NCBI GenBank assembly: GCA_003635315.1
Contig: PYJD01000007.1
Location: 13,400 to 77,399, forward strand
DNA: 64,000 nucleotides
Source: Candidatus Poribacteria bacterium
GTDB taxonomy: Bacteria; Poribacteria; WGA-4E; WGA-3G
Direction: 5' to 3'
Shown: piece by piece, positions 3 to 14,148 of the stretch
Layout: each line of letters starts with the position of its first letter
Position numbering within the stretch: position 1 is the stretch's first letter
Notes under the pieces: generated by a model
Told to the model about the DNA's origin: nothing
Databases searched by the model: none
The model's input: the letters and a program-made list of their open reading frames with translations, nothing else
Made by a program: the position numbers and the translations under genes

Positions 3-3000
3 AACGCTCGAAACTTTCTCAAGAATCATCAACCTAAAACTTCTCTAAAGTTATTACAGGATCTGAAAAAGCGAACGGGCAAAGATGCTTCGGATGATCT
101 AAAGTTTGGCATTCTAACAAATATGGCAGCTGCTCAGTTTGCCCTAAATAACGAAAAAGAAGCTGCAGAATTGCTTCATGAAGCATTTAAGTATGATTCT
201 GAAAACGAAAAAGCACTTTCTAACCGTGCTTTAGCATATCTCATACAAAAAGAAACGGTAAAAGCTGCTGATTACGCCAAACAGACATTGGCTAAGAATG
301 ATGAAAATACGGATGCTTATGTAATTCTCATTGGAATTGCTGAAGAGGAAGAAACACTTGACGAAGTAATTGCTAAAGTTCCCGACTATTTGCACGATTC
401 CCCACAAATTGCCTACGCTATCAGCGAATTAGCAAAACAACGTGGGAATTTTGAAGCAGCGAAAAGATGGGGTGAAATCATGGTAGACAAGGGAGACGCT
501 CCTGATTTCAAAGCTGCTTACGCAACTATCTTGATTGAGCAAGTTTTAGAAGATAATCTTGCAGTGGGGACCAGTCAACTATATAAAGCACAAAAGGAAC
601 AACTACAACGGGCAATAGAATTACTTACTGAAGCATGGAATAGCATTGCCAATACGGAATTAAGAAATTATAGAGTAGATTGGATCATTAACAGAGGAAT
701 TGCACATTTTCACCTTGGAGAACTGAAAAAAGCATCTGAAGACCTTGATTCTGCCTTAGAAATTGAAGGCTTAAATCCAAGTTTGATTAAAAAACGTGCG
801 TTATTATCTTTTGAGTGTGGAGAAATAGCAGAAGCAATTGAATTATTGCAATCAATACAATCCGCACCAGAAGTTCCAGATGCTCCCATTATCCTTGCTA
901 ATTTTCTCTTAGCAGATGAACGGTTAGATGAGTCTATTACAATACTTAATGATTTTTTGCAGACAGATTTGACACCAGAACTTAAAGAAAAAGCAATGCT
1001 TCTGCTCATTAAAGCATATATTGGTACTGAACGTATTGAAGAGGCAGAGCAAATACTAACACCGATGCTCGAATCATCTCCGACAAGTGTATTAAATCTC
1101 ATTAATGCTGCTCAAATTTCGAGTAAATTGGGAAAAAAGGACAAGGCTGTTTCTCAACTTAAAAAAGCGTACAATTATGCATTAAATAGCAATGATTTTT
1201 TAGAAATAGTGGATTTAGCTTCAGAACTCTTTATCAATAAACAATTCAAAGAAGCTGCTACGTTTTACGAAAAAATTACTGACACAAGCCAGAACTCCCA
1301 ATTGACACAATGGTTAGTACAAAGCTACTATAATTCCGGCGAATTTGAGAAGGCACTTAAGATATGTCAGAAACTTCGTGATAATTATGGTCCACTTGAA
1401 AACATATCCGTGATGGAGGTCGTGATTTATGAGGAAATCGGCGATATGAATCAAGCCGAAACTGTATGTAAAGAGTATATAGAAAAATTTCCAACTGATT
1501 ACGACATGCAAATCCGTCTTGGTATGATTCTCATCCGATCATCTAAAGAGACTGAGGTGGATAATGTGTTAGATACTTTTTCTGAAATCAAAGACTTTTC
1601 ATATGTAAATGATCTTTCTTTGCAAGGATGCTTTGAATTAGCTTTGTTACATCAAATGAGATTTCAACATGAAAAAGCACTCAATATAATGTATGAAGTG
1701 CGAAGAATGCATTTCCATCAACCCGATGCACACCTTTTATATGTCAAGGTTTTCCTTTCAGTTGAAAAGGAAATTCCTGAAGTGCTAAAACCTACTCAAG
1801 TTGAAAAGGATACAGCAGTCAAAATCGACAATTCTGATGAAGACAATTGGTATATCATTGAAAAACGAGAAAATGTAGATCTCAACCGCCATGAATATGA
1901 TGTGAATCACTCTTTTGCTAAAAAATTAACAGGGAAAAACATCAATGACGAGGTGAGTTTCGGTGAAAAAATGTCCGGTATAAAAACTGGAAAGATCGTT
2001 GATATCAAGAGTAAATACGTTCATGCATATCAAGAAACATTAAGAAAATACTCGCATTTGTTTCCATTAGACCAGAACATGGATAATATAAAAATTGACG
2101 ATTCAGATGGAATCGACGATAAAGAAAGATTTGAAAAAATATTTGAATTGATTAGTAAGAGACAAGATGAAATAAATAAATTTGAAAAACTATATAAAGA
2201 AAAAAAACTTACAATCGGTACTTTCACAAAATTCGTCGGAAGTAATAGTTTAGATACATGGGGATCTCTCATGGGTAACCCTGAATTAGGGATTAGATGT
2301 AGTATGGGAGATATTCAGGAAAGAAGCAGTATCCTTAACCGACTTAATGAATCCAAACCTAAACTTGTTGTAGACATTATTTCACTAATCACTTTACACA
2401 GTTTGGATGCTGCGGATATTGTAGTCAATACGTTTGGAAAACTCTGCATTGCTCAATCGACTATTGATGAATTACTGAGTATTATCAGTGAAAGAGAGGG
2501 AATGTGGTTTAATCGCGAGGGAATGGTAGTTGGTAAAAAAGGAAATCGGTATGTAAAACAAATTATCAATCCTGAGGAAATGAAGCAGGGAATAGAATAT
2601 ATAAAAAAGATTGTTCACTGGATTAGGGAGAACTGTGAAGTTGGCGAAGCCACTGTTGGGTCAGAGATGAACCAATTACGCAGGAGGGAACTCAATGACA
2701 TGCTACAACAGCATTTCCTTGATACTATTATTCTTGCAAGCCAACCCGGACACCTACTTTTCTCGGATGATGGACGACTCAGGCATTATGCAAAAACAAG
2801 CCTAAATAACGACGCTGGCACAAACTTTCAAATTGACGGTGTGTGGGCACAAGTTTTATTGGAGCATTGTGTTAAGCAAAATCTCCTTGATAAAGTTGAT
2901 TACAATGAGATGACGATAAAACTTGTTTGTTCAAATTACTATCACACGCAATTTGATGCCGTTTTGTTAATGGAAGTAGCAAAACGTTCAAATTGGAAAC

Positions 3001-3686
3001 TCTCTGAACCTTACAACAGTTTTGTGCTTGCCTTAGGTAGAGAACGCATGAATCTGCAAACAGCATTAGACGTGGCAGTTGATTTTCTTTATAAACTTTG
3101 GGATGAATCAATTTTATTTAGACAAAAAGAATTCTTGACATTGGGTTTATTAACTGGACTTACTTATGGACGGAATGCACACAAAGTATTGAACCGACTT
3201 GAAAATTTAATTCAAAATAAGCATAGACATTTTTTGCCCGTCGAAAACAGTATTCTCAAACGAATCGATGAATTCAAACAAATCTATCCTCTCGAAGATA
3301 ACTTTACGTTTTTGGCAGAAGATGATATTCGTCTTAAAGGAACGCGGGTAGGTATTGAAACTATCCTATACGAATATATTCACAATAGTAAATCACCAGA
3401 AGTAATTGCTGAACGCTACTATCATTCACTCACAGTGGAACAGGTTTACGTCACGATCCTATATTATCTTCAAAATCAAGAAAAAGTTGGTACATATTTG
3501 GATGATTATATTAAATTTTGCCAAACGGCACGAGAAGAACAGGCGAAAAATCCACCACCCGGAGTTATTCGCCTGCGTGAACTTATAGCAGAAAAGGAAG
3601 CAAATTCGTATATACCCGAGCCTACCAATCCAGAAATAGACGCAGCAAGTACTACACAATCCCCAACAGATAATGAATTGGGATAA
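3..3686 (+). CDS. TPR-repeat protein with GreA/GreB C-terminal-like domain, PIN nuclease domain and C-terminal DUF433 domain (5'-partial)
   Basis: The frame is open from base 3 (NARNFLKNHQPK...) into the 123..3686 ORF, so the true start lies before the window. TPR-like helical repeats are followed by a GreAB-C-like segment (HEYDVNHSFAKKLTGKNINDEVSF, ~1790-2010). PIN acidic motifs follow (LVVDIIS, STIDELL, LDTIILA, LFSDDGRLR, ~2355-2810), then DUF433 (DDIRLKGTRVGIETIL...SLTVEQVYVTILYY, ~3291-3603). Confidence 0.8.
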   Translation, partial: NARNFLKNHQPKTSLKLLQDLKKRTGKDASDDLKFGILTNMAAAQFALNNEKEAAELLHEAFKYDSENEKALSNRALAYLIQKETVKAADYAKQTLAKNDENTDAYVILIGIAEEEETLDEVIAKVPDYLHDSPQIAYAISELAKQRGNFEAAKRWGEIMVDKGDAPDFKAAYATILIEQVLEDNLAVGTSQLYKAQKEQLQRAIELLTEAWNSIANTELRNYRVDWIINRGIAHFHLGELKKASEDLDSALEIEGLNPSLIKKRALLSFECGEIAEAIELLQSIQSAPEVPDAPIILANFLLADERLDESITILNDFLQTDLTPELKEKAMLLLIKAYIGTERIEEAEQILTPMLESSPTSVLNLINAAQISSKLGKKDKAVSQLKKAYNYALNSNDFLEIVDLASELFINKQFKEAATFYEKITDTSQNSQLTQWLVQSYYNSGEFEKALKICQKLRDNYGPLENISVMEVVIYEEIGDMNQAETVCKEYIEKFPTDYDMQIRLGMILIRSSKETEVDNVLDTFSEIKDFSYVNDLSLQGCFELALLHQMRFQHEKALNIMYEVRRMHFHQPDAHLLYVKVFLSVEKEIPEVLKPTQVEKDTAVKIDNSDEDNWYIIEKRENVDLNRHEYDVNHSFAKKLTGKNINDEVSFGEKMSGIKTGKIVDIKSKYVHAYQETLRKYSHLFPLDQNMDNIKIDDSDGIDDKERFEKIFELISKRQDEINKFEKLYKEKKLTIGTFTKFVGSNSLDTWGSLMGNPELGIRCSMGDIQERSSILNRLNESKPKLVVDIISLITLHSLDAADIVVNTFGKLCIAQSTIDELLSIISEREGMWFNREGMVVGKKGNRYVKQIINPEEMKQGIEYIKKIVHWIRENCEVGEATVGSEMNQLRRRELNDMLQQHFLDTIILASQPGHLLFSDDGRLRHYAKTSLNNDAGTNFQIDGVWAQVLLEHCVKQNLLDKVDYNEMTIKLVCSNYYHTQFDAVLLMEVAKRSNWKLSEPYNSFVLALGRERMNLQTALDVAVDFLYKLWDESILFRQKEFLTLGLLTGLTYGRNAHKVLNRLENLIQNKHRHFLPVENSILKRIDEFKQIYPLEDNFTFLAEDDIRLKGTRVGIETILYEYIHNSKSPEVIAERYYHSLTVEQVYVTILYYLQNQEKVGTYLDDYIKFCQTAREEQAKNPPPGVIRLRELIAEKEANSYIPEPTNPEIDAASTTQSPTDNELG

Positions 3687-3849: not shown

Positions 3850-4920
3850 ATGAATTCTTATGAAAGACATGAACTAAAGGATTACGAAAATGCAAAACTA
3901 CGAGTTCCATTTGCCTTTGATGAAGAGAGGTTATGCGCCCCTAAGACAGCAGAGAAGGGGAAACATTATTTTTGTCCAGGTTGTCAAGATACAGTGATTC
4001 TAAAAAAAGGTGAGGTGAAGGCGGCGCATTTTGCTCATAAGGCAAGTAAAACTTGTAATCAGGAAACGATTGTTCATAAGACTGCCAAAAATCTAATTGT
4101 TAAGATGATTTCTGATTGGAAGGCGGGAAAGACTGAGTCACCCAAATTGAGAAGGAAGTGTGGATTTAAATTTGATTTTGGCCTTTATGGTGAGAAAACT
4201 TGTGAAGAAACCTGCGATCAACCTATGCCTGATAAAGTAGAGCAAGCGGTTACAGAATATAGGATGTCTAATGGATTTATTGCAGATGTCGCTTTAATGG
4301 TTGAAAACGAACCTGCTCTTGCAATAGAAATCAGGGTCACACATGCTGTAGATGAAAATAAGGCACATTCGCTTTCAGTGCCGTTTATTGAATTGGATGG
4401 ACACACAGTCTTAGAAAAACCTAATCATTTTGATCCAATTCGTGACAACAAATTGAACCCATTTACTTGTAATACATGCAAGCATGCTGAACCCAAATTT
4501 GAGGACAAAGTTACCAAGGTTGTCAAGCAAACTCGTATAAAACTCCCTGACCGTGATAGCTGTTACTACCGATATGGAATTGATAAATGCTGGAATTGTC
4601 AACGCGAAATTATCTTATATACTTGGCCTGGAGATGACTGGGATACCTCACCCCCTAAGAAAAAACCGATCCCACAAACGATTAAATTTTGTTATTCACG
4701 AACTATTGGTCACAAGTATTGGGCTAACACTTGTCCATGCTGCAAGCGGATTCAAGGGGATTTTTTCCTATATGGATCTAATTTGTTTCCTTTTTCCAGA
4801 AATGACATGGTGGATTCGCCAGATGCATATCGTCAAGACATGCAAAAGATCGTGTTTTGTGCCAGGTTTAACAGGATGCTTGAAAAAACTAATCCCGCAT
4901 CTACTCATTGCGTAAAATAA
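3850..4920 (+). CDS. CoiA-like PD-(D/E)xK nuclease family protein with Zn-binding motifs
   Basis: N-terminal FCPGC...HFAH and ETIVHKTAK; nuclease core EYR...IADV...AIEIRVTH; C-terminal CWNC and CPCC Zn-ribbon motifs. Confidence 0.7.
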   Translation: MNSYERHELKDYENAKLRVPFAFDEERLCAPKTAEKGKHYFCPGCQDTVILKKGEVKAAHFAHKASKTCNQETIVHKTAKNLIVKMISDWKAGKTESPKLRRKCGFKFDFGLYGEKTCEETCDQPMPDKVEQAVTEYRMSNGFIADVALMVENEPALAIEIRVTHAVDENKAHSLSVPFIELDGHTVLEKPNHFDPIRDNKLNPFTCNTCKHAEPKFEDKVTKVVKQTRIKLPDRDSCYYRYGIDKCWNCQREIILYTWPGDDWDTSPPKKKPIPQTIKFCYSRTIGHKYWANTCPCCKRIQGDFFLYGSNLFPFSRNDMVDSPDAYRQDMQKIVFCARFNRMLEKTNPASTHCVK

Positions 4921-5903
4921 TGTCAGATAATCCTCTCGTGAATCTTGAAGGTTTAACAAAACCTGTTAGCGACCTGGGTATAGCTCTAATTGATAAAATA
5001 GGGGATGCTACAGGCATACTTTATGAACCTACACGCATCAAACGAAGAGCTAAAGCTGAAGCCAAAGCTGCAATGATTCAAGCTGAAGCCAAAATTGAGA
5101 TAACCGATCTGCAACAACGCGCAGTACGTCGTTGGATTGAAGAGGAAGTACAACGTCAGGAAAGCATTGAAAACATCATTACAAAATCATTCAACAAGTT
5201 AAACGAAGATGCAGATCCTAATGCAATAGAGGACGATTGGATAATCAAATTCTTTGATAAATGTCGATTAGTAACCGATGATAATGTGCAAGATTTATGG
5301 GCAAGCATTTTAGCAGGTGAAGCCAATAGTGCGGGATCTTATTCACCTAAGACCTTGACAACTTTAGCAGATATGAACCAAAAAGATTTGATCTTATTTA
5401 ACACTTTTTGTTCGTTATGCGTCGTGTATTTAGAAAACCCTGATGTATTTCTGAAGTCGCCATCTACTTTTAAAATTAGAACGGCGAGAGTTCCTGTATT
5501 AAGAGGCAGTATAACCGATGTGGCTACCCTTACGGGTCGTCCTAATCAGGATATGGATAAATTTGCTCGAAAATCTAAGTCTATATATCAAGAATATGGT
5601 TTTGGTGCTGACGAGTTTCAATTATTGTCAGAACATGGACTTATCCTAGATGAAACCTATAGTGCATACTCACATTTTTGGTATAATAACGAACTCTATT
5701 TACCTGTGAATCCATCTGCTAATTCCCCATTTAATGAAGAAGATTACCAACAGATTAATATAACAGGATATTGCTTATCTTCCGTTGGGAGAGAGTTATT
5801 CCATATCACAAAACGTGACAACCCACCTGAATATCTTAAACATCTAATTGATTTTTTACAAGAATATTACAGTGTAAAAATAGTTAAGATCTCTAAATCG
5901 TAG
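4920..5903 (+). CDS. DUF2806 domain-containing protein
   Basis: Motifs EEVQRQESIENI, DDWIIKFFD and LWASILAGE...GSYS..TL..L. The ATG at 4920 overlaps the upstream TAA (TAATG); the track starts at 4908. Confidence 0.7.
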   Translation: MSDNPLVNLEGLTKPVSDLGIALIDKIGDATGILYEPTRIKRRAKAEAKAAMIQAEAKIEITDLQQRAVRRWIEEEVQRQESIENIITKSFNKLNEDADPNAIEDDWIIKFFDKCRLVTDDNVQDLWASILAGEANSAGSYSPKTLTTLADMNQKDLILFNTFCSLCVVYLENPDVFLKSPSTFKIRTARVPVLRGSITDVATLTGRPNQDMDKFARKSKSIYQEYGFGADEFQLLSEHGLILDETYSAYSHFWYNNELYLPVNPSANSPFNEEDYQQINITGYCLSSVGRELFHITKRDNPPEYLKHLIDFLQEYYSVKIVKISKS

Positions 5904-6044
5904 AATTTTACACAACAGATTTTTTAGAAAGAAGAGAAAGCTGATTAAAATGGGTCTTGATGAAAAACACAAACTAAGAATTGATATGAGAATTAGAAAA
6001 GCCAGCTATCAGTGATTTTTTATGATTCTTATCGAAGACATACA

Positions 6045-7280
6045 ATGAAAAATATGAATTTACCAGAGCATTGGAAAGTCATACGACTATCGAATCAAGA
6101 TTTATTCAGTTTTGAAAATGGTATTTGGAAAGGAAAAAAAGCACCATTTGAAGAATGTGCTGTTGTAAGAAACACTAATTTTACCAGTGACGGATACCTT
6201 GACTTAACAGACGTAGCAGTCTTACCTATAGAACAAAGGTATTTGGATAAGAAAAAACTGAAATGGGGTGATATTGTTATTGAACGATCTGGAGGCGGTC
6301 CTGAGCAACCCGTTGGTAGAGTAGTGTTCTTTAATATTAAAGATGGTATATATTGTTTTAGTAATTTCACAAGTCGGTTGAGAGTAATTGATAAAAACAC
6401 AATTACCCCTATTTACCTATTTTTCTATCTTCTGTATTTGCATGATTCAGGTCAAACAAGGAAATTGCAAAAACGTACGACAGGGATACGTAACTTAATT
6501 TTTGGAGATTACAAAGAATCCGAAATCCCCCTTCCTCCACTCCCCGAACAACGCGCCATTGCCCACATCCTACAAACAATCCAAGAAGCAAAGTTCACCC
6601 GAAAACGCGAAATTGAATTAGAACGGGAACGCAAAGCAGCGTTGATGGATTATCTCTTTACACACGGCACGAAAGGTGAACCCCACAAGCAGACGGAAAT
6701 CGGCGAGATTCCTGAGAGTTGGCAAGTGACAAAGTTGGGTGACTTAGTAAAGTTGAAAAGTGGGGAGTCACGTCCAAAGGATATAAAAAATAAACCCGAT
6801 TCCGAGCGAACTATTCCAGTATATGGCGGAAATGGCATTTTAGGGTATACAACCAAAAAGTTCAGCGATCAAAGGCTTCTTGTAATTGGACGTGTTGGCG
6901 CATATTGCGGTTGTGTCCATATAGCGGAGTGCCCTAATTGGATTACTGATAATGCTTTATATCCAGAGAAATGGTTTTGCAATGAAGTTTCTCTTGATTT
7001 TCTTGCAGAACAATTAAGGCACTGTAATTTGAATAAACTTCAAAGGAGAGGAGGACAACCATTGATCACACAGAGCATTCTTCATCAATTCAAAATACCG
7101 CTACCCCCACTTTCAGAACAACGCGCGATTGCCGAAATATTACAAAACTTTGAGAATAAAATTGCAGCCCTTGAACGAGAAGTTGAACTCATAGATGAAC
7201 TCTTCCACGCCATGCTTGAAGAACTGATGACAGGACAACGGTCTGCTGTCCCACTGATTGATACCAAATTGCCGAACTAA
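6045..7280 (+). CDS. hsdS: Type I restriction-modification specificity subunit
   Basis: Two TRDs, each followed by the conserved PLPPL.EQRAIA motif, with central KQTEIGEIPESW. Likely ATG at 6045 (track GTG 6012). Confidence 0.95.
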   Translation: MKNMNLPEHWKVIRLSNQDLFSFENGIWKGKKAPFEECAVVRNTNFTSDGYLDLTDVAVLPIEQRYLDKKKLKWGDIVIERSGGGPEQPVGRVVFFNIKDGIYCFSNFTSRLRVIDKNTITPIYLFFYLLYLHDSGQTRKLQKRTTGIRNLIFGDYKESEIPLPPLPEQRAIAHILQTIQEAKFTRKREIELERERKAALMDYLFTHGTKGEPHKQTEIGEIPESWQVTKLGDLVKLKSGESRPKDIKNKPDSERTIPVYGGNGILGYTTKKFSDQRLLVIGRVGAYCGCVHIAECPNWITDNALYPEKWFCNEVSLDFLAEQLRHCNLNKLQRRGGQPLITQSILHQFKIPLPPLSEQRAIAEILQNFENKIAALEREVELIDELFHAMLEELMTGQRSAVPLIDTKLPN

Positions 7281-7491
7281 CAGATGTCCTCGACAACAAA
7301 CGTGGTCTTGTAAAAATAATATTACATAATGATTGTGTGCTTCCACTTTCGCAACTGAATACCTCTGGTGAGATGTTGTAGTCGGTTGCGATTTTGGGTA
7401 TGATATGCTAAAATTCCACACAGGATTTTAGTAGACGACCCAATTAACAGCAGAACGCTTGAAATTAATTGAGGATGGGATAGACAGCAAA

Positions 7492-9075
7492 ATGAGATGT
7501 TTTGAAACGCGTGGTCCTGTATATCCTGAAGATAACTACGTCGTTGCACGCACAGACGAACTTTCGGATTTTGTCAATCGGTTGGAAAAGGGACGGTATA
7601 TCGTCCTTTTTGCCCCACGGCAGACAGGAAAAACCACGTTCTTCCGCAGTGCTTTAGATAAGCTCGCAGCCGAGACGTATTTCCCAATTCAGATTGATTT
7701 TCAAGCGTCCAACAACCTTGAACCTTTCGAGTTTTATGAAGGCATTTACGACGATATTCGCGAGGAGATAGAGAATGTTTTTCAAAGACGCGGCAGCATG
7801 CCTTCTGAAGCTTTAGAGCAACTTTTAGACAACACAAAACTCACCAACCATCTTTCTATGCGAAGGTTTTTTAGGCGACTTTCAGATGTGCTGGAAAATC
7901 AGAAGGTTGTCCTGATCATTGACGAATTTGACGGTATCCCCCGGACGGTTGTAAGCGATTTTCTATATACACTCCGCCACATCTACCTCTCCAGAAAGCA
8001 TCGATCCCCACATACCGTCGGCATCGTCGGGGTCAAGAGTATTACCCAGCTGAACTACGATCGCTCTATTTCTCCCTTCAACATCCAGGATGAGTTCAAA
8101 TTGCCCAATTTCACCCTGGATCAGGTGCACGAGCTGCTTTCGCAATACACAGAAGAAGTGGGGCAGCCCTTCGATCCCGCGGTTATTGAATCTATTCACA
8201 AACAGACTGCTGGACAACCCGTACTCGTCAATCGATTCGCGCAGATCCTTACAGAGGAATTGGACATTGCCAAAAGTGACCCAATCACAATGCAACACTT
8301 TTCAAAGGCACATGTCCAACTTCTTCGCGAAGGACATACGAACATTGATCACCTGATAACCAATATCCGTAGGAATCGACGGTTTGAGTCGCTCCTTATG
8401 AAAATCGCATCTTATGATGAAGGCACAGAATTCAACCTTTACAATGAACTCATCAATGAACTCGCCACTTATGGTGTCATCGCCGAAGGGGATGACGGTA
8501 TGTGTGAAATTGTCAATCCGATTTATCACTATTGCATCATACGGGCATTCAAACCGATAGTTAATGGATTGGAGCAGGAATATTTACCAGAAGACAATCG
8601 CGCAGGATTTCAGGACTACCTCACACCGGATGGTCAGATTCAGATGGCAGCACTTCTTGACAACTTCCGTGACTTTATTGCACGCGCAGGCTTCAAGATT
8701 CTACAAGTGCCAGACACACCCCGAGAATATGTTGGGCAGCACCTTCTCTTTGCCTATCTGGAGCAGTTTGTACAGATTGTGGGTGGGACGTTATATTTAG
8801 AAGTACAAACAGGACGCGGCAGAATAGACATCCTTATCCTTCATCATCAAAGAAAATACATCGTTGAAACAAAGATCTGGGGAGGCGAAATACGTTATCA
8901 GGCAGGTAAGACACAACTCGCTGCGTACGTTAAACTCGAAAAGGCAGTAGACGGATGCTACGTCGTGTTTGACCATCGTAAAGAGCCAGAACCCCGCGTA
9001 GAGACAGAGATACTCGACGGCTCTACAATTCGGAGTTATGTGATTCCAGTAATACAAGAACGTCCATCGACTTGA
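7492..9075 (+). CDS. AAA-like (AAA_35-type) ATPase with C-terminal PD-(D/E)xK nuclease-like domain
   Basis: Walker A FAPRQTGKTT, Walker B LIIDEFD, C-terminal EVQTGRGRIDIL...IVETK. ATG at 7492 gives the family-typical N-terminus MRxFxTxGPV. Confidence 0.8.
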   Translation: MRCFETRGPVYPEDNYVVARTDELSDFVNRLEKGRYIVLFAPRQTGKTTFFRSALDKLAAETYFPIQIDFQASNNLEPFEFYEGIYDDIREEIENVFQRRGSMPSEALEQLLDNTKLTNHLSMRRFFRRLSDVLENQKVVLIIDEFDGIPRTVVSDFLYTLRHIYLSRKHRSPHTVGIVGVKSITQLNYDRSISPFNIQDEFKLPNFTLDQVHELLSQYTEEVGQPFDPAVIESIHKQTAGQPVLVNRFAQILTEELDIAKSDPITMQHFSKAHVQLLREGHTNIDHLITNIRRNRRFESLLMKIASYDEGTEFNLYNELINELATYGVIAEGDDGMCEIVNPIYHYCIIRAFKPIVNGLEQEYLPEDNRAGFQDYLTPDGQIQMAALLDNFRDFIARAGFKILQVPDTPREYVGQHLLFAYLEQFVQIVGGTLYLEVQTGRGRIDILILHHQRKYIVETKIWGGEIRYQAGKTQLAAYVKLEKAVDGCYVVFDHRKEPEPRVETEILDGSTIRSYVIPVIQERPST

Positions 9076-9177
9076 TGGAAGTTGCCTTGACACAGTATCT
9101 GCCATATAATCTAATAGTTGAATAAGATGAGTCATATTAGACGGCATCGTTACAATATTCACACTTATCAATTTTTC

Positions 9178-9206
9178 TTGACAAACGAAATTATCAGTGT
9201 TAATAT
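9178..9206 (+). promoter_or_regulatory. Sigma70-type promoter upstream of hicA
   Basis: TTGACA (9178-9183), 17 nt, then TG-n-TAATAT (9201-9206). A second candidate is TTGCCT-N17-TATAAT at 9082-9110. Confidence 0.55.
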
Positions 9207-9302
9207 TATTATCACACAGAAAACAATTTGGGTATACAAGCGTAACGCGCTATTGTATCTGTACAACGCTGCAGTTGTAAGAACGTTGGATAGACTGGGG
9301 TT

Positions 9303-9488
9303 ATGAAGTATAGAGATGTCATAAAACTTATCGAAGAAGATGGGTGGTATTATACAAAGACACGAGGCAGTCATCGCTATTTTAAGCATCCAACAAAAGT
9401 GGGAAAAGTGACAGTTTCAGGTAAAATGGGCAAAGATGTTCCAAAGGGTTTACTCAACCGCATTCTAAAACAAGCAGGACTCAAGTAA
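9303..9488 (+). CDS. hicA: HicA family toxin (type II TA mRNA interferase)
   Basis: 61 aa with the family pattern ...GWYYTKTRGSHRYFKHP...GLLNRILKQAGL; the catalytic GSH histidine is retained. Confidence 0.92.
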   Translation: MKYRDVIKLIEEDGWYYTKTRGSHRYFKHPTKVGKVTVSGKMGKDVPKGLLNRILKQAGLK

Positions 9489-9502
9489 TGAGGGATAAAC
9501 GA

Positions 9503-10885
9503 ATGGAATATGTTGTAATTTATGAAAGAGGAGACACCAGTTATGGTGCTTATGTTCCTGATCTCCCAGGATGCTTTGCTGTAGGTGATACATTGGAAGA
9601 AGTCCAGACATTAATTGATGAAGCAATCGAATTTCATATTGAAGGATTACAAGAAGACGGTGACGATGTTCCTGAACCCTCTATAAACATCCCTGTTCAG
9701 TATGATATTCCATATCTTGGTAAACACAAAGTCATTGAAAACTATGTATATAATGATGATCCTGCTCTTTTTTCTTGTAAGAACTCTGCCGGACAACTCC
9801 ACCTTGTAGCTGTTGGGAAAAACGATCAACATAAAACATGGCTCCGTGTTGGCATCTCTAATGTACGGTTTAATTATATCCGCTCTGGTGGATTAGAACT
9901 ACGTAGTGTTTTCACCGATGCTGGGTATGGTACTCTACTGCAGGTAAGAGTGCCACACGACGATTCTATAAAACCTTCACTGGAGGTCATCCATCCCAAT
10001 GAAATCCCTGAGGACCTACTCCCGCTTCCAGGTGAACGACTCGGTCTAAAAACCGAAACTCTTCCAGCACTCAGCAATGCACAAGAAATAGCTTCATCCA
10101 GTGCCCGAGAACTTGTGAATTTTGCCTTCAATTTTGGTGGAATTTTCAGAACAGAAGCACCGGTCGACTTTTTAGGTAATATTCTAACCGGATTACAACA
10201 AGTTATTAACAGAATCGGTGCGAAGTGTGTTAATTCAACATCTAAAAAGATACCTGAAGACATCAAAAGCAGTATGGGGATCTCACTATTAGAAGTTGGT
10301 GCAGGTTCATTTGAGATTCAACTTGCATCGACAGAGTATGTTGGTATATTGAAAGAGTCTGAACTTGGAAATTCAATAAATGAATTTGTCAAAATCCTGA
10401 ATTCTGGTTCTAACGAAGACGAACTAAAATCACTCATGGATCAATTTGGACCAAGAGTTGCAAAGGGGTACACTAATTTCCTCAAACCACTGAGTGAATC
10501 CGTTATAGACACCAAATTCACTTGGACATCTCCACATCCCGACCGTGGTGGAACAGCAAAACTTACGCAATCCCAAATAATAAATGCGATTGATATTCTT
10601 GAGAAAATTCAAGAAGAAACATCTGAAAAAATCACCATACGCGGCACTTTAGTAGGTATCTCTGTCAGAGATAAAACATTTCAGTTAGAAACGTCTGATG
10701 ATAACTATTATGAAAGAGATTTCTTTAAAGGAAAGATCACGGATGAAGCTTTTGAGACTGAAATCGTTAAGAATGCTACAGTAAACAAGCAATATACTGC
10801 AGAAATACAAGGATTCGCTCAAATTGGCGAGACCAAAGATGAAACCAATATTAAATTCAGACTACTTAGTCTCAATAAAAAGTAA
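9503..10885 (+). CDS. hicB: HicB antitoxin domain fused to a DUF6575-like domain and an uncharacterised C-terminal region
   Basis: Residues 1-60 are canonical HicB (YGAYVPDLPGCFAVGDTLEEV...EAIEFHIEGL...VPEP). The frame then continues about 390 aa without a stop. The segment LGKHKVIENYVYNDDPALFSCKN...WL..IS..R resembles DUF6575. Start is 9488 (TAATG overlap) or 9503 (GAGGGA RBS). Confidence 0.75.
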   Translation: MEYVVIYERGDTSYGAYVPDLPGCFAVGDTLEEVQTLIDEAIEFHIEGLQEDGDDVPEPSINIPVQYDIPYLGKHKVIENYVYNDDPALFSCKNSAGQLHLVAVGKNDQHKTWLRVGISNVRFNYIRSGGLELRSVFTDAGYGTLLQVRVPHDDSIKPSLEVIHPNEIPEDLLPLPGERLGLKTETLPALSNAQEIASSSARELVNFAFNFGGIFRTEAPVDFLGNILTGLQQVINRIGAKCVNSTSKKIPEDIKSSMGISLLEVGAGSFEIQLASTEYVGILKESELGNSINEFVKILNSGSNEDELKSLMDQFGPRVAKGYTNFLKPLSESVIDTKFTWTSPHPDRGGTAKLTQSQIINAIDILEKIQEETSEKITIRGTLVGISVRDKTFQLETSDDNYYERDFFKGKITDEAFETEIVKNATVNKQYTAEIQGFAQIGETKDETNIKFRLLSLNKK

Positions 10886-10909: not shown

Positions 10910-13783
10910 ATGTCTGAACGTTCCGTAGTCCAAGACCCACTCTTCCAATACGCCAACGAAATCGGCTGGACACAAGTCACCCGCACAGAAGCCATGCAGA
11001 TGCGGGGAGGAAATACTTCCGCACTTTATTTTCAAGAGACATTAAAATCACAACTCATAAAACTAAACAAAGGAATCATAGACGACTCCAATTGTGCCGA
11101 CGTAATACGCATACTCAACTTGCTGAAACCCACACTTGAAGGCAATCAGGATGCACTTGCTTGGATACACGGAGAAAAATCAACCTTTGTTGCAAGTGAG
11201 AACCGAGAACGTAACGTTACCCTGATAGATTTTGAAAACCCCGACAACAACCAGTTCCATGTCACCGATGAATGGGAACAGCAAGGCACAGTCCACCGCA
11301 ACCGCGCCGATGTAGTTTTTCTAATAAATGGCATCCCTATAGCAATCGTAGAAGCGAAATCTGTACATAAACGTGACGGATTAGCACTCGGTGTTGAGCA
11401 GATACATCGTTATCACAACGAAACACCAGAACTGTTCACAACAGCACAACTCTTTGCTGTCACACAACTCACGGATCTATTCTATAGCGTAACGTGGAAC
11501 ACCAGCAGAAAAAATCTGTTCAACTGGAAAACTGACGAACCGACCGACTATGAACAGAAGATAAAGACATTTTTCGACCGCGACCGGTTGCTCCAGACAC
11601 TGCAGCAATCCATCGTATTCCAAAGTAGAGATGACCAACTCACCAAAGTTGTGTTGCGTCAACATCAGAACCGTGCCGTGGAAAAGGTAATCGAACGGGT
11701 GAACGATCCTGACAAACGACGTGGTCTTGTTTGGCACACACAAGGCAGTGGTAAAACCCTTACAATGATAACGATTGCAGCACAACTCCTGCGTGGCGGA
11801 ACACAGACAGAAAAACCGACCGTGCTCATGCTTGTTGATCGCAATGAATTAGAAAGCCAACTCTTTAAGAACATCACCGGATACGGCATCACATCGCCGA
11901 GAGTTGCACAGAGTAAAGATGATCTGGAAGATATTCTATCCAAAGATTATCGCGGTTTGGTCGTGTCAATGATACATAAGTTCGACAAGAGACCCGCGAA
12001 CCTTAACACCCGTGAGAGTGTGGTTGTGTTGGTAGACGAAGCACACCGAACAACCGGCGGGGATTTCGGTAATTACCTGATGGGTGCTCTTCCAAATGCG
12101 ACTTATATCGGATTCACCGGTACACCCATTGATAGTCTGAGCAAAGGTGAAGGCACTTTCAAAGTATTCGGCAGTGATGACGCACAGGGGTATCTCGACA
12201 AATACGCAATCACAGAATCTATTGAAGACGGCACAACTGTTAAATTGAATTACATGCTTGCCGCCTCCGATTTACGGGTAGATAGAGATGTATTAGAAAG
12301 CGAATTCCTAAACCTCGCAGAAGCAGCAGGCGTTAGCGATCCTGATGAACTAAATGCAATCCTTGACCGTTCTGTTCGGCTAAAGGAGATATTAAAAGCA
12401 CCTGCACGTATAGAACGAATAGCCGAGTGTGTTGCGGAACACTTTCAAAATACTGTAGAACCGATGGGATTCAAAGCCTTTTTAGTTGCTGTTGACCGCG
12501 AAGCATGCGCGTTGTATAAAAAAGCACTTGATAAATACTTACCCGCTGAATACTCGGAAGTCGTCTATTCAGATGACAACCGAGATTCTGAGTTAATGAA
12601 ATCGTTTCACCGCACATCGGAGCAGGAAAGGGAGGTCCGTAAGCGATTTGTCGATAAGGGTGCACAACCGAAAATACTGATTGTAACACAGAAACTACTC
12701 ACAGGATTTGATGCACCGATTCTTTATTGCATGTATCTTGATAAACCGATGCGCGACCACGTGTTGTTGCAATCTATTGCGCGTGTCAACCGTCCCTATG
12801 AGGATGCGGACGGACTGGTAAAACCTGCCGGATTTATATTGGATTTTGTCGGTATCTTTGAAAACATGCAGAAGGCACTCGCTTTCGATTCTGATGAGGT
12901 GGAGAGCGTTATTCGGAATATTGATCTGCTCAAGGAAACATTCACGAGGATGATGTGCGAAGATGCTCAACAGTATTTGCCGTTAGCAACGGGTTCGGAC
13001 GATAAAGCCAAGGAACAAGCAATTGTACATTTTGAGGATAAGGATGTTCGGGAAACATTTTTCACGTTCTTCAAAACATTGCAAAATCTCTATAACATCT
13101 TGTCCCCCGATGCTTTCTTACAGCCGTTTATAGCGGATTATCAGGCACTCACATCTCTTTTTGGACTCATCCGCAACGCATTTTCTACACAACTTTATGT
13201 CCACAGGGAGTTGACAAATAAGACACGAAAACTCTTGCAAGATGAAACTGAAGGTGAACTATTTGCATTACCAAACGAGGTATATGAATTGAATGAAACC
13301 ACCTTGCAGAGATTAGATCAGAGCGATATGTCTGACACATTAAAAGTCTTGAACTTGGCAAAAGCAGTACGTCAAAAGGTTACCGAGGAGGGTGAGTCAA
13401 AACCTTTTTTGATTTCTATTGGTGAACGTGCAGAAGCAGCTATAGAAATATACGACAGTCGTCAATCAGAAACAAAAGACGTACTCACCAAACTACTTAA
13501 TGAGGCAGCAACAATTTCACGCGCTGAAAGAGAACAACCCCGAATGGGATTAGATGACAATTCTTATGCAGTCTATACTGTTATGAGTAATGCTATGGAG
13601 ACTGTTACACCGGAACAGGCGCGGTCCGTTAATCAAGTATTTGAACAGTTTCCCGATTATCAATGGGATCAACATCAAGAAAGTGAGTTAAGAACGACAC
13701 TCTATAAGACATTGGAACCATCAGTTGACTTTCGCACCAAAATAGAAATAACGAACAAATTGTTGGATTTACAGCGTCTATGA
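10910..13783 (+). CDS. hsdR: Type I restriction enzyme R subunit
   Basis: Nuclease motif RADVVFLINGIPIAIVEAK, Walker A WHTQGSGKT, DEAH box, and helicase motifs GFTGTP, LLTGFDAP and QSIARVNR. Confidence 0.95.
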   Translation: MSERSVVQDPLFQYANEIGWTQVTRTEAMQMRGGNTSALYFQETLKSQLIKLNKGIIDDSNCADVIRILNLLKPTLEGNQDALAWIHGEKSTFVASENRERNVTLIDFENPDNNQFHVTDEWEQQGTVHRNRADVVFLINGIPIAIVEAKSVHKRDGLALGVEQIHRYHNETPELFTTAQLFAVTQLTDLFYSVTWNTSRKNLFNWKTDEPTDYEQKIKTFFDRDRLLQTLQQSIVFQSRDDQLTKVVLRQHQNRAVEKVIERVNDPDKRRGLVWHTQGSGKTLTMITIAAQLLRGGTQTEKPTVLMLVDRNELESQLFKNITGYGITSPRVAQSKDDLEDILSKDYRGLVVSMIHKFDKRPANLNTRESVVVLVDEAHRTTGGDFGNYLMGALPNATYIGFTGTPIDSLSKGEGTFKVFGSDDAQGYLDKYAITESIEDGTTVKLNYMLAASDLRVDRDVLESEFLNLAEAAGVSDPDELNAILDRSVRLKEILKAPARIERIAECVAEHFQNTVEPMGFKAFLVAVDREACALYKKALDKYLPAEYSEVVYSDDNRDSELMKSFHRTSEQEREVRKRFVDKGAQPKILIVTQKLLTGFDAPILYCMYLDKPMRDHVLLQSIARVNRPYEDADGLVKPAGFILDFVGIFENMQKALAFDSDEVESVIRNIDLLKETFTRMMCEDAQQYLPLATGSDDKAKEQAIVHFEDKDVRETFFTFFKTLQNLYNILSPDAFLQPFIADYQALTSLFGLIRNAFSTQLYVHRELTNKTRKLLQDETEGELFALPNEVYELNETTLQRLDQSDMSDTLKVLNLAKAVRQKVTEEGESKPFLISIGERAEAAIEIYDSRQSETKDVLTKLLNEAATISRAEREQPRMGLDDNSYAVYTVMSNAMETVTPEQARSVNQVFEQFPDYQWDQHQESELRTTLYKTLEPSVDFRTKIEITNKLLDLQRL

Positions 13784-14148
13784 AAACCGAGGACGTATTA
13801 AACAATACTACAGATTTGAAAAGTGAAGTGTGGCGGTGGGCAGACTGCCTCGGTGTTAAGGTGCACGAAGTTCACGTACGTCAGATGCGACGGAAATGGG
13901 CGTCTATATCAACCAATGGTAGATTGACACTCAACACAGAATTACTCAATCTGCCCGCGCAATTAGCGGAATTTGTCATTGTGCATGAATTGGTGCATCT
14001 ACTTGTACCGAATCATGGGAAATTATTCAAAGGATACATGTCAGCATATCTCCCAGATTGGCAGGAACGACAGAAGTGCTTGAACGAAGAAGGAATAACT
14101 GGTTTAGGTAAGAGTTTAGAAGCGTGTAAGACCTTATCGTGTGAATAG
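13780..14148 (+). CDS. Short M48-like (YgjP/DUF45) zinc metallopeptidase family protein associated with type I RM
   Basis: RQMRRKWAS...VIVHELVHL..PNH motif; overlaps the hsdR stop (ATGA). Confidence 0.85.
   Translation: MKTEDVLNNTTDLKSEVWRWADCLGVKVHEVHVRQMRRKWASISTNGRLTLNTELLNLPAQLAEFVIVHELVHLLVPNHGKLFKGYMSAYLPDWQERQKCLNEEGITGLGKSLEACKTLSCE

Follow-up and report, generated by a model that had tools for sequence, protein, structure and literature searches.

hicA and a hicB-derived fusion gene within a type I restriction-modification operon

This work deals with a two-gene cassette, hicA followed by a gene that joins the N-terminal domain of HicB to a large extension, in a genome of Candidatus Poribacteria, a sponge symbiont (assembly GCA_003635315.1). 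Both genes lie within a type I restriction-modification (R-M) operon on a stretch of 64,000 nucleotides (contig PYJD01000007.1, positions 13,400 to 77,399), which is called the window here; coordinates are those of the window unless another locus (L001 and so on) is named. The genes and encoded domains of the cassette are listed below (aa, amino acids; B, the protein to which HicB is fused).

9303..9488, + strand: hicA, 61 aa, predicted RNase toxin of the HicA family (PF07927) with a GSH motif and His24
9488..10885, + strand: hicB-N::B fusion gene, 465 aa; its start codon overlaps the hicA stop codon (TAATG)
9512..9682, + strand: HicB N-domain (HicB-N), aa 9-65, HicA-binding, partial RNase H-like (PF15919)
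9695..10087, + strand: DUF6575 N-domain of B (DUF6575N), aa 70-200, a beta-rich domain (about 70-170) plus linker (PF20215)
10088..10612, + strand: middle alpha/beta domain of B, aa ~201-375, with Q237, S274-F275 and W346; start of the PDC-M63B-like region
10625..10879, + strand: C-terminal oligonucleotide/oligosaccharide-binding (OB) fold barrel, aa ~380-464, from AlphaFold2 secondary structure and Foldseek

HicA matched the Pfam model HicA_toxin (PF07927) over the full profile (E 1.1e-21) and the Burkholderia pseudomallei HicA structures 4c26/6g26 (E 4e-10). His24 was aligned with a position occupied by Ala in the deposited 4c26 chain, reportedly the H24A catalytic mutant of HicA. The gene thus encodes a small HicA of the dsRBD-like type with the conserved catalytic His. 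Orthologues with 70-77% identity are found at the same position in L001, L008-L011, L040, L041, L044/45 and L048. Across 8 genomes 32 of the 61 columns are invariant, which indicates that hicA is under selection where it is present.

For the fusion gene an alternative start (ATG at 9503, behind GAGGG) would give a protein of 460 aa; the N-terminus MRDKRM is kept in the orthologues. Residues 9-65 matched HicB_lk_antitox (PF15919; E 1.1e-14), the match ending at position 59 of the 123 profile positions, and the N-domains of HicB3 (4p78) and of B. pseudomallei HicB (6g1c, 6g1n) with E values of 2e-6 to 1.5e-5. The same HicB chains were retrieved by Foldseek, and hence a HicA-binding HicB N-domain is encoded beside hicA. 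The ribbon-helix-helix (RHH) or helix-turn-helix (HTH) DNA-binding domain that characterizes HicAB Classes 3 and 4 was not detected by Pfam anywhere in the fusion protein. Instead, a linker of about 10 residues leads from HicB-N to B, of which aa 75-244 matched DUF6575 (PF20215; E 6e-20).

A preliminary description of the window, made from the DNA sequence, had proposed an intact hicA followed by a HicB N-domain fused to about 390 extra residues. This arrangement is confirmed by the Pfam and PDB matches and by 46 further protein clusters (446-469 aa) that carry the same two Pfam domains. As several of these clusters are encoded on complete long-read chromosomes, the fusion is not an assembly artefact. 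The same description had asked whether hicA is always located upstream, and whether homologues carry hicB and the DUF6575 gene as separate open reading frames (ORFs). Wherever hicA is intact it stands directly 5' of the fusion gene. No relative was found in which hicB and DUF6575 are separate neighbours, and the fusion is present in dozens of genomes.

The extension of HicB is a complete member of a widespread protein family

A HMMER search with aa 70-465 yielded 1106 clusters at E<=1e-3 and 555 at E<=1e-10. Among the best 150 relatives, 126 are 370-430 aa long and aligned from about residue 8 to the end. Since the relatives are normally free-standing, at about 390-410 aa, and aligned from end to end, the extension is regarded as a complete member of a widespread family, termed B. 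The DUF6575-like domain and the region of about 260 aa distinguished in the preliminary description are thus both present, yet together they form one complete and widespread protein. Residues that are near-invariant in the family are all retained in the window protein, both in the N-terminal part (E84, D90, P92, W118, S124, R127 and E146) and further downstream (R207, Q237, S274, F275, W346 and Y436). Residues 206-458 matched the PADLOC model PDC-M63B at positions 57-304 of 309 (E 3.8e-14).

Structures were predicted with AlphaFold2. A first model had a predicted local distance difference test (pLDDT) score of 74; with a deeper alignment of 109 sequences, aa 70-465 were modelled at a pLDDT of 94.6 (above 90 in the N-domain) and a predicted template modelling score (pTM) of 0.85. 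The C-terminal part adopts OB topology in this model (beta1-3, short helices, beta4-5; a five-stranded barrel). It was matched by Foldseek, over 85-107 columns, to PDB structures of Teb1 OB-B (3u4z, E 2e-3), SSB, Rim1 and RPA, and also to the anticodon-binding domains of AspRS and AsnRS. Neither model provided a PDB structural analogue of DUF6575N or of the middle domain in Foldseek searches. A catalytic fold for B was sought and discarded: a profile search of the PDB returned only spurious de novo proteins, and Foldseek returned only the OB fold and the HicB N-domain. The middle domain and the OB fold probably act on nucleic acid.

Members of the B family occur in defence and prophage contexts. 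Full-length relatives among predicted viral proteins include one from an uncultured siphovirus, annotated as DUF6575 domain-containing (E 5e-21), and another from Leptospira phage LE1; a tblastn search of a phage collection with a B relative gave no match. In a plasmid collection six DUF6575 genes were found, and the two inspected both have gene A (see below) upstream. DUF6575N is joined to differing C-terminal parts in the wider family. Two further architectures were observed in metagenomes: a CHAT (caspase-like) domain fused before B (P0222, 710 aa), and a DUF6575 N-domain duplicated in tandem in front of B (P0231, 529 aa).

hicA and HicB-N occupy the place of the partner gene of B

DUF6575 was listed among new defence domains by Vassallo et al. 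2022 (PMC9519451). In the PD-T4-10 system described there, which consists of two overlapping genes, PD-T4-10B is toxic and is neutralised by PD-T4-10A, and the pair provides abortive-infection defence against T-even phages in E. coli ECOR65 (PMC9519451). The window protein has the DUF6575 N-domain that defines the B component (PF20215). Relatives that are 23-53% identical to it matched the PADLOC model PD-T4-10_B via their N-domains (profile positions 25-122), with E values of 2.9e-14 (L032), 1e-9 (L024), 1.8e-8 (L012) and 3.5e-5 (L002).

Unfused B genes are preceded by a conserved gene, A, which encodes a protein of about 125-138 aa with the motifs WPxxYPxxCPP, G.VYR, CG.SV and SHH.WW.P. According to tblastn searches with two A queries, A lies directly 5' of B in L002-5, L016, L018, L022-26, L028, L029, L032, L033, L035, L036 and L038; among unfused loci with enough sequence, L012 is the sole exception, with no A upstream. 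The same order was found on an Oscillatoria plasmid and in a prophage-like region of Rahnella (hhalign probabilities 99.9 and 98.5), where A and B sit between a Q antiterminator gene and a holin gene. For two A proteins a match to almost the full length of the PADLOC model PD-T4-10_A was obtained (E 1.4e-6 and 4.4e-5), and no sequence relative of A was found in the PDB. An alignment of A proteins (e.g. L002:5589-5963) revealed Y25, R26, S60, H105, W108, W109, C12 and C57 as invariant or near-invariant; the Cys residues are not retained in the Rahnella homologue.

At locus level, tblastn detected A neither in the window nor in any other locus with a HicB-fused B. As A lies directly upstream of B in unfused loci and is absent from fused ones, the A-B operon and hicA plus hicB-N::B are mutually exclusive at a locus, and hicA and HicB-N occupy the place of A. 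The idea that A itself is HicA- or HicB-like, which would make the fusion a mere permutation, was rejected at the sequence level (probability 0.07 in the profile-profile comparison of A with HicA). One metagenome-assembled genome (MAG), Plut_88891, holds both a short fused form without hicA (L015) and a canonical A-B operon (L016) in which B is broken into two ORFs. The two kinds of system can thus be present in one genome, where A might act in trans.

Origin of the fusion and variants in sister genomes

Candidatus Poribacteria MAGs are the source of all close relatives of the fusion protein. A tree of B proteins groups the fused ones in a single clade (support 1.0) inside the free-standing B proteins of Poribacteria, which implies that the fusion arose once. 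The junction is clean: HicB-N stops where small HicB proteins stop, and B begins a few residues from its normal N-terminus. A small HicB of Class 1 (see below), which lacks a DNA-binding domain, is the likely donor of HicB-N; a compact pair of hicA and a 71-aa hicB with 57-59% identity is present in another metagenome (L034). Thus, in a single event in one Poribacteria clade, A was displaced by hicA and a short hicB, and the latter was fused in frame to B. In L011 hicA and the fusion gene lie outside any R-M operon, among housekeeping genes, so the pair can move as a two-gene unit.

Four forms of the fusion gene were distinguished in the sister genomes.

Long form (middle domain and OB fold), ~460 aa: hicA intact in the window, L001, L008-11 and L041; hicA dead in L007 (5' deletion) and L039 (nonsense codon)
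Short form (N-domain and OB fold), 270-297 aa: hicA intact in L040 and L048; dead or absent in L015 and L046/47; coordinates L040:5001-5858, L015:8013-8867, L046:3001-3855, L048:3001-3813
Form with Uma2 nuclease tail (HicB-N, DUF6575N and PD-(D/E)xK-type Uma2), ~381 aa: hicA intact in L044/45; dead or absent in L006 and L017; coordinates L006:6001-7161, L017:8001-9161, L044/L045:3001-4146
Truncated form, ~200 aa: intact hicA not seen; dead or absent in L014 and L019-21; L013, at a contig edge, is assigned to neither state

The fusion ORF of L041 is frameshifted on a contig of 4x coverage. The short form (clusters P0052-55) was generated by an in-frame deletion of aa ~201-375, with an identical junction (PQE|EET) in P0052-54 and L015. 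The Uma2 form (four clusters, P0101/104/105/114) was made by a deletion extending to the Uma2 gene downstream; in L001 and L039 the latter is still a gene of its own. For each of the long, short and Uma2 forms, one or more loci with an intact hicA were seen. A joint decay of hicA and extension, which held in the first 11 loci, was abandoned as a rule because L040, L044/45, L048, L007 and L039 break it.

Selection on the cassette

Pairwise dN/dS (omega) values were determined among eight full-length fusion orthologues with dS up to about 1. They amounted to 0.07-0.19 for HicB-N, 0.20-0.46 for DUF6575N and 0.18-0.49 for the C-terminal part. In the short form (0.07 / 0.31 / 0.26) purifying selection is likewise kept, including that on the N-domain and the OB fold. 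In 16 of 16 loci the first 178 codons, which encode HicB-N and DUF6575N, have stayed intact, irrespective of how hicA or the C-terminus has fared. Median omega in loci without and with hicA was 0.086 versus 0.093 for HicB-N and 0.228 versus 0.235 for DUF6575N. Hence, hicA, the fused HicB-N and the B part are all under purifying selection.

Proposed function and alternative explanations

The identity, architecture and evolutionary origin of the cassette can be given as described above with high confidence. With respect to function, we favour the view that it is a chimeric two-gene toxin-antitoxin or abortive-infection unit that a type I R-M operon harbours as cargo (probability about 0.5). By homology, HicB-N would bind HicA and neutralise it in the manner of canonical HicAB. 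Through its attachment to DUF6575N, the part of B that always accompanies A, it would also replace A and take over the restraint of the B effector. Phage infection, by analogy with PD-T4-10, might disturb the complex and free HicA, B or both, which would halt the infected cell. The step in which HicB-N restrains the fused B effector in cis is quite conceivable, if somewhat short of even odds.

Two pairs of sister loci serve as natural experiments. In L007 and L039 the full-length fusion is intact, hicA is dead and A is missing from the locus; fused B is therefore tolerated without HicA and A from the same locus. In L040 and L048 hicA is intact and the middle domain of B is deleted, and thus HicB-N with a reduced tail is enough alongside HicA. 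Both states are consistent with the favoured model without proving it.

The following points weigh against this model: (i) tolerance of B without HicA fits a non-toxic B equally well as gating in cis; (ii) B has no recognisable catalytic fold, and only its OB fold has analogues in the PDB; (iii) the window protein did not match PADLOC PD-T4-10_B at E<=1, so that its link to PD-T4-10 runs via Pfam DUF6575 and the relatives; (iv) the presumed toxicity of the window B is an extrapolation, given its low identity to the E. coli PD-T4-10B that was tested; (v) no defence phenotype was seen for PDC-M63AB in E. coli NILS69, the native host (PMC12409345); (vi) the cassette decays in many sister genomes by loss of hicA and by truncations, which shows that it is dispensable.

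The preliminary description had suggested the extension as a possible sensor of a phage product that would release HicA. In such a sensor-gated HicAB, HicA would be the sole effector, and the extension derived from B would be re-used as a sensor whose change of shape sets HicA free, for example when the OB fold binds phage nucleic acid or a phage protein. A B without a recognisable enzymatic fold, left with a binding-type OB fold, would suit this role, as would the short variants, in which the middle domain is missing, purifying selection acts on both the N-domain and the OB fold, and hicA is intact in L040 and L048. Fused toxin-antitoxin proteins whose antitoxin part senses phage are reportedly known (CapRel SJ46). 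However, the extension turned out to be no unfamiliar sensor domain but a full-length protein of the PD-T4-10B/PDC-M63B family. In E. coli, the prototype of this family is the toxic component (PMC9519451), and the invariant middle-domain residues retained in the long form suggest that the original activity was kept. Moreover, a pure sensor for HicA would be useless in L007 and L039, where the fusion persists at full length beside a dead hicA, and neither HicB-N nor DUF6575N shows relaxed selection in loci without hicA. Release of HicA by a sensor is thus partly supported, is not the reading that the evidence favours, and is considered unlikely.

Alternatively, HicB-N might be a cis-acting regulatory head, independent of HicA, of a modular single-chain defence protein. 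HicB-N and DUF6575N would be its conserved core, the C-terminal effector would be exchangeable between middle domain with OB fold, OB fold alone and Uma2 nuclease, and hicA would be a dispensable co-passenger. The intactness of the first 178 codons in all 16 loci and the equal selection with or without hicA are in line with this idea, although losses of hicA may be recent, in which case pairwise omega mostly reflects the time before the loss. Three in-frame C-terminal architectures recur over several clusters, and DUF6575N is joined to varied C-terminal parts in the wider family; however, deletion scars would account equally well for the Uma2 and truncated forms, as Uma2 is a separate downstream gene in L001 and L039. 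Furthermore, each architecture has an intact hicA in at least one genome, and the 32 invariant columns of HicA do not speak for a dispensable gene. This explanation is regarded as distinctly improbable.

An ordinary HicAB addiction module with an inert B passenger, in which the fusion is accidental and the pair merely stabilises the R-M island, would agree with the frequent decay of the locus in sister genomes and with the missing defence phenotype of the related PDC-M63AB (PMC12409345), but is very unlikely in view of ~395 stop-free B codons with a dN/dS of 0.18-0.49, the retention of every residue typical of this family, which comprises more than 1100 clusters, and the maintenance of the fusion in 47 clusters.

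The favoured model can be combined with an exchangeable effector: HicB-N and DUF6575N together would form a portable control head with swappable C-terminal effectors, which here would replace A of PD-T4-10-type systems. This extended version is put forward tentatively. If it is true, the Poribacteria cassettes represent a natural domain swap, DUF6575N would be a regulatory adaptor of the whole PD-T4-10 family, and the role of the dedicated antitoxin A could be filled by a type II antitoxin domain whose own toxin, HicA, serves as co-effector or trigger.

Operon context and neighbouring genes

The genes and sites around the cassette are given below.

6012..7280, + strand: hsdS, specificity subunit of the type I R-M system, 5' boundary of the cargo slot
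7459..9075, + strand: AAA_35/AAA_22-type ATPase gene, 538 aa, with a weak C-terminal NERD nuclease match, between hsdS and hicA
9154-9173 / 9188-9207, + strand: imperfect inverted repeat of 20 nucleotides (nt) enclosing the promoter-like site, possible promoter/operator of the cassette
9178..9206, + strand: promoter-like site TTGACA-17-TAATAT, a consensus-level match only
10910..13783, + strand: hsdR, restriction subunit of the type I R-M system, 3' boundary of the cargo slot
13780..14148, + strand: YgjP-like gene, 122 aa, with a match confined to the C-terminal half of the metallopeptidase model (positions 114-206 of 207)

The defensive context anticipated in the preliminary description is evident, as the cassette shares a type I R-M operon with other cargo. 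Its placement between hsdS and hsdR holds for the slot as such; the pair does not directly follow hsdS, since the AAA_35/NERD gene intervenes. This gene was found only in the window and, as a truncated copy of 359 aa, in L007. Its product had no PADLOC match below 1e-5, and it may represent further defence cargo of the ATPase-nuclease type. More than 15 loci of Poribacteria share the order hsdS-[hicA-fusion]-hsdR-ygjP-like; the YgjP-like gene overlaps the hsdR stop codon and is kept after hsdR in all syntenic loci. hsdM was not found within the window. In relatives it is located upstream of the TPR-PIN cargo or directly before hsdS (L008:14-1336, L010:4677-6311, L040:1057-2688), and therefore the R-M operon of the window is probably complete, with hsdM just beyond the 5' edge.

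The promoter postulated for hicA is borne out as a match to the consensus, but the segment is not conserved: except for the last ~60 nt before the ATG, the region 5' of hicA could not be aligned with that of relatives, and the relatives compared lack the AAA_35 insertion. With regard to expression, no public run contained more than 10% of the sampled words of the window, and none of the runs was RNA.

Upstream of hsdS, a CoiA_N-like gene (356 aa, 3850-4920, + strand) overlaps a DUF2806 gene (331 aa, 4908-5903, + strand). The pair could be another two-gene cargo system; the CoiA domain is among the domains newly associated with defence by Vassallo et al. 2022 (PMC9519451). A protein of 1187 aa with TPR, GreABC and PIN domains is encoded at 123-3686 (+ strand); the match of its C-terminal 287 residues to DUF433 was weak (E 4e-4) and did not reach the Pfam cut-off. 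In L006 and L039 a DUF5615 (PIN-like) gene directly follows the TPR-PIN gene, and none was seen in the window.

Comparison with known systems

Overall, the cassette is a new arrangement of known defence parts (HicAB and PD-T4-10). With PD-T4-10 it shares the DUF6575 N-domain, and its unfused relatives have the A-then-B operon with abutting or overlapping genes and matches to both PADLOC models. It differs from PD-T4-10 in that A is lacking, hicA and a HicB domain stand in its place and HicB is covalently fused to B. Furthermore, the region of the window protein that follows the N-domain matches PDC-M63B and not PD-T4-10_B, and the host is an uncultivated Poribacteria symbiont. PDC-M63 is a candidate two-gene system of PADLOC-DB v2. 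Nearly the whole PDC-M63B model is covered by aa 206-458 of the window protein; PDC-M63B lacks both the DUF6575 N-domain and the HicB domain, and its partner PDC-M63A was matched neither by HicA nor by any neighbour of the window gene.

In common with HicAB of Yersinia pestis (HicA3B3, 4p78) and B. pseudomallei (6g26), the cassette has the order hicA-then-hicB, the overlap of stop and start codons, a catalytic-type His and a HicA-binding HicB N-domain. Where these systems have an RHH or HTH domain, HicB of the window bears ~395 residues of an unrelated toxin-family protein. In a survey of HicA, 14 gene contexts were catalogued, of which Class 1 has a small HicB without a DNA-binding domain (Gerdes 2024, mBio, PMC10865869). 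Such small HicB proteins resemble HicB-N of the window; hicA followed by HicB-N::DUF6575 is absent from the 14 contexts (PMC10865869), beside which the cassette stands as a fifteenth. In Class 8 of that survey (HicB of 342-356 aa, order hicBA), an unknown and a LysRS-like domain are located N-terminal to the HicB fold. This class is a loose possible parallel, with gene and domain order reversed compared to the window.

The analogy to toxin-antitoxin-chaperone systems drawn in the preliminary description was not substantiated: none of ten flanking genes encodes a SecB-like domain, and the extension is a full protein of the PD-T4-10B family rather than a chaperone-addiction extension. CapRel SJ46, said to have been described by Zhang et al. 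2022, is reportedly a single-chain fused toxin-antitoxin whose antitoxin part senses a phage protein. It and combinatorial antitoxin domains such as Panacea/PanA (PMC10440598) resemble the cassette in that an antitoxin domain is recombined with an unrelated toxin or both reside in one polypeptide. In the window, by contrast, the antitoxin domain stems from another system (HicAB), whose cognate toxin HicA is still a separate gene, and neither CapRel nor Panacea is related in sequence to the window protein.

The cassette is a rare instance of covalent fusion between the antitoxin domain of one system and the toxin of a different one. It shows that a PD-T4-10-type toxin can exist in the absence of its dedicated antitoxin if DUF6575N carries a fused HicB domain, which points to DUF6575N as the site of toxin control. 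The natural variants (long, short and nuclease-tailed, with or without hicA) are ready-made constructs for studying the gating of two toxins, and the main value of the cassette is the natural handle that it offers on the control of PD-T4-10-type toxins.

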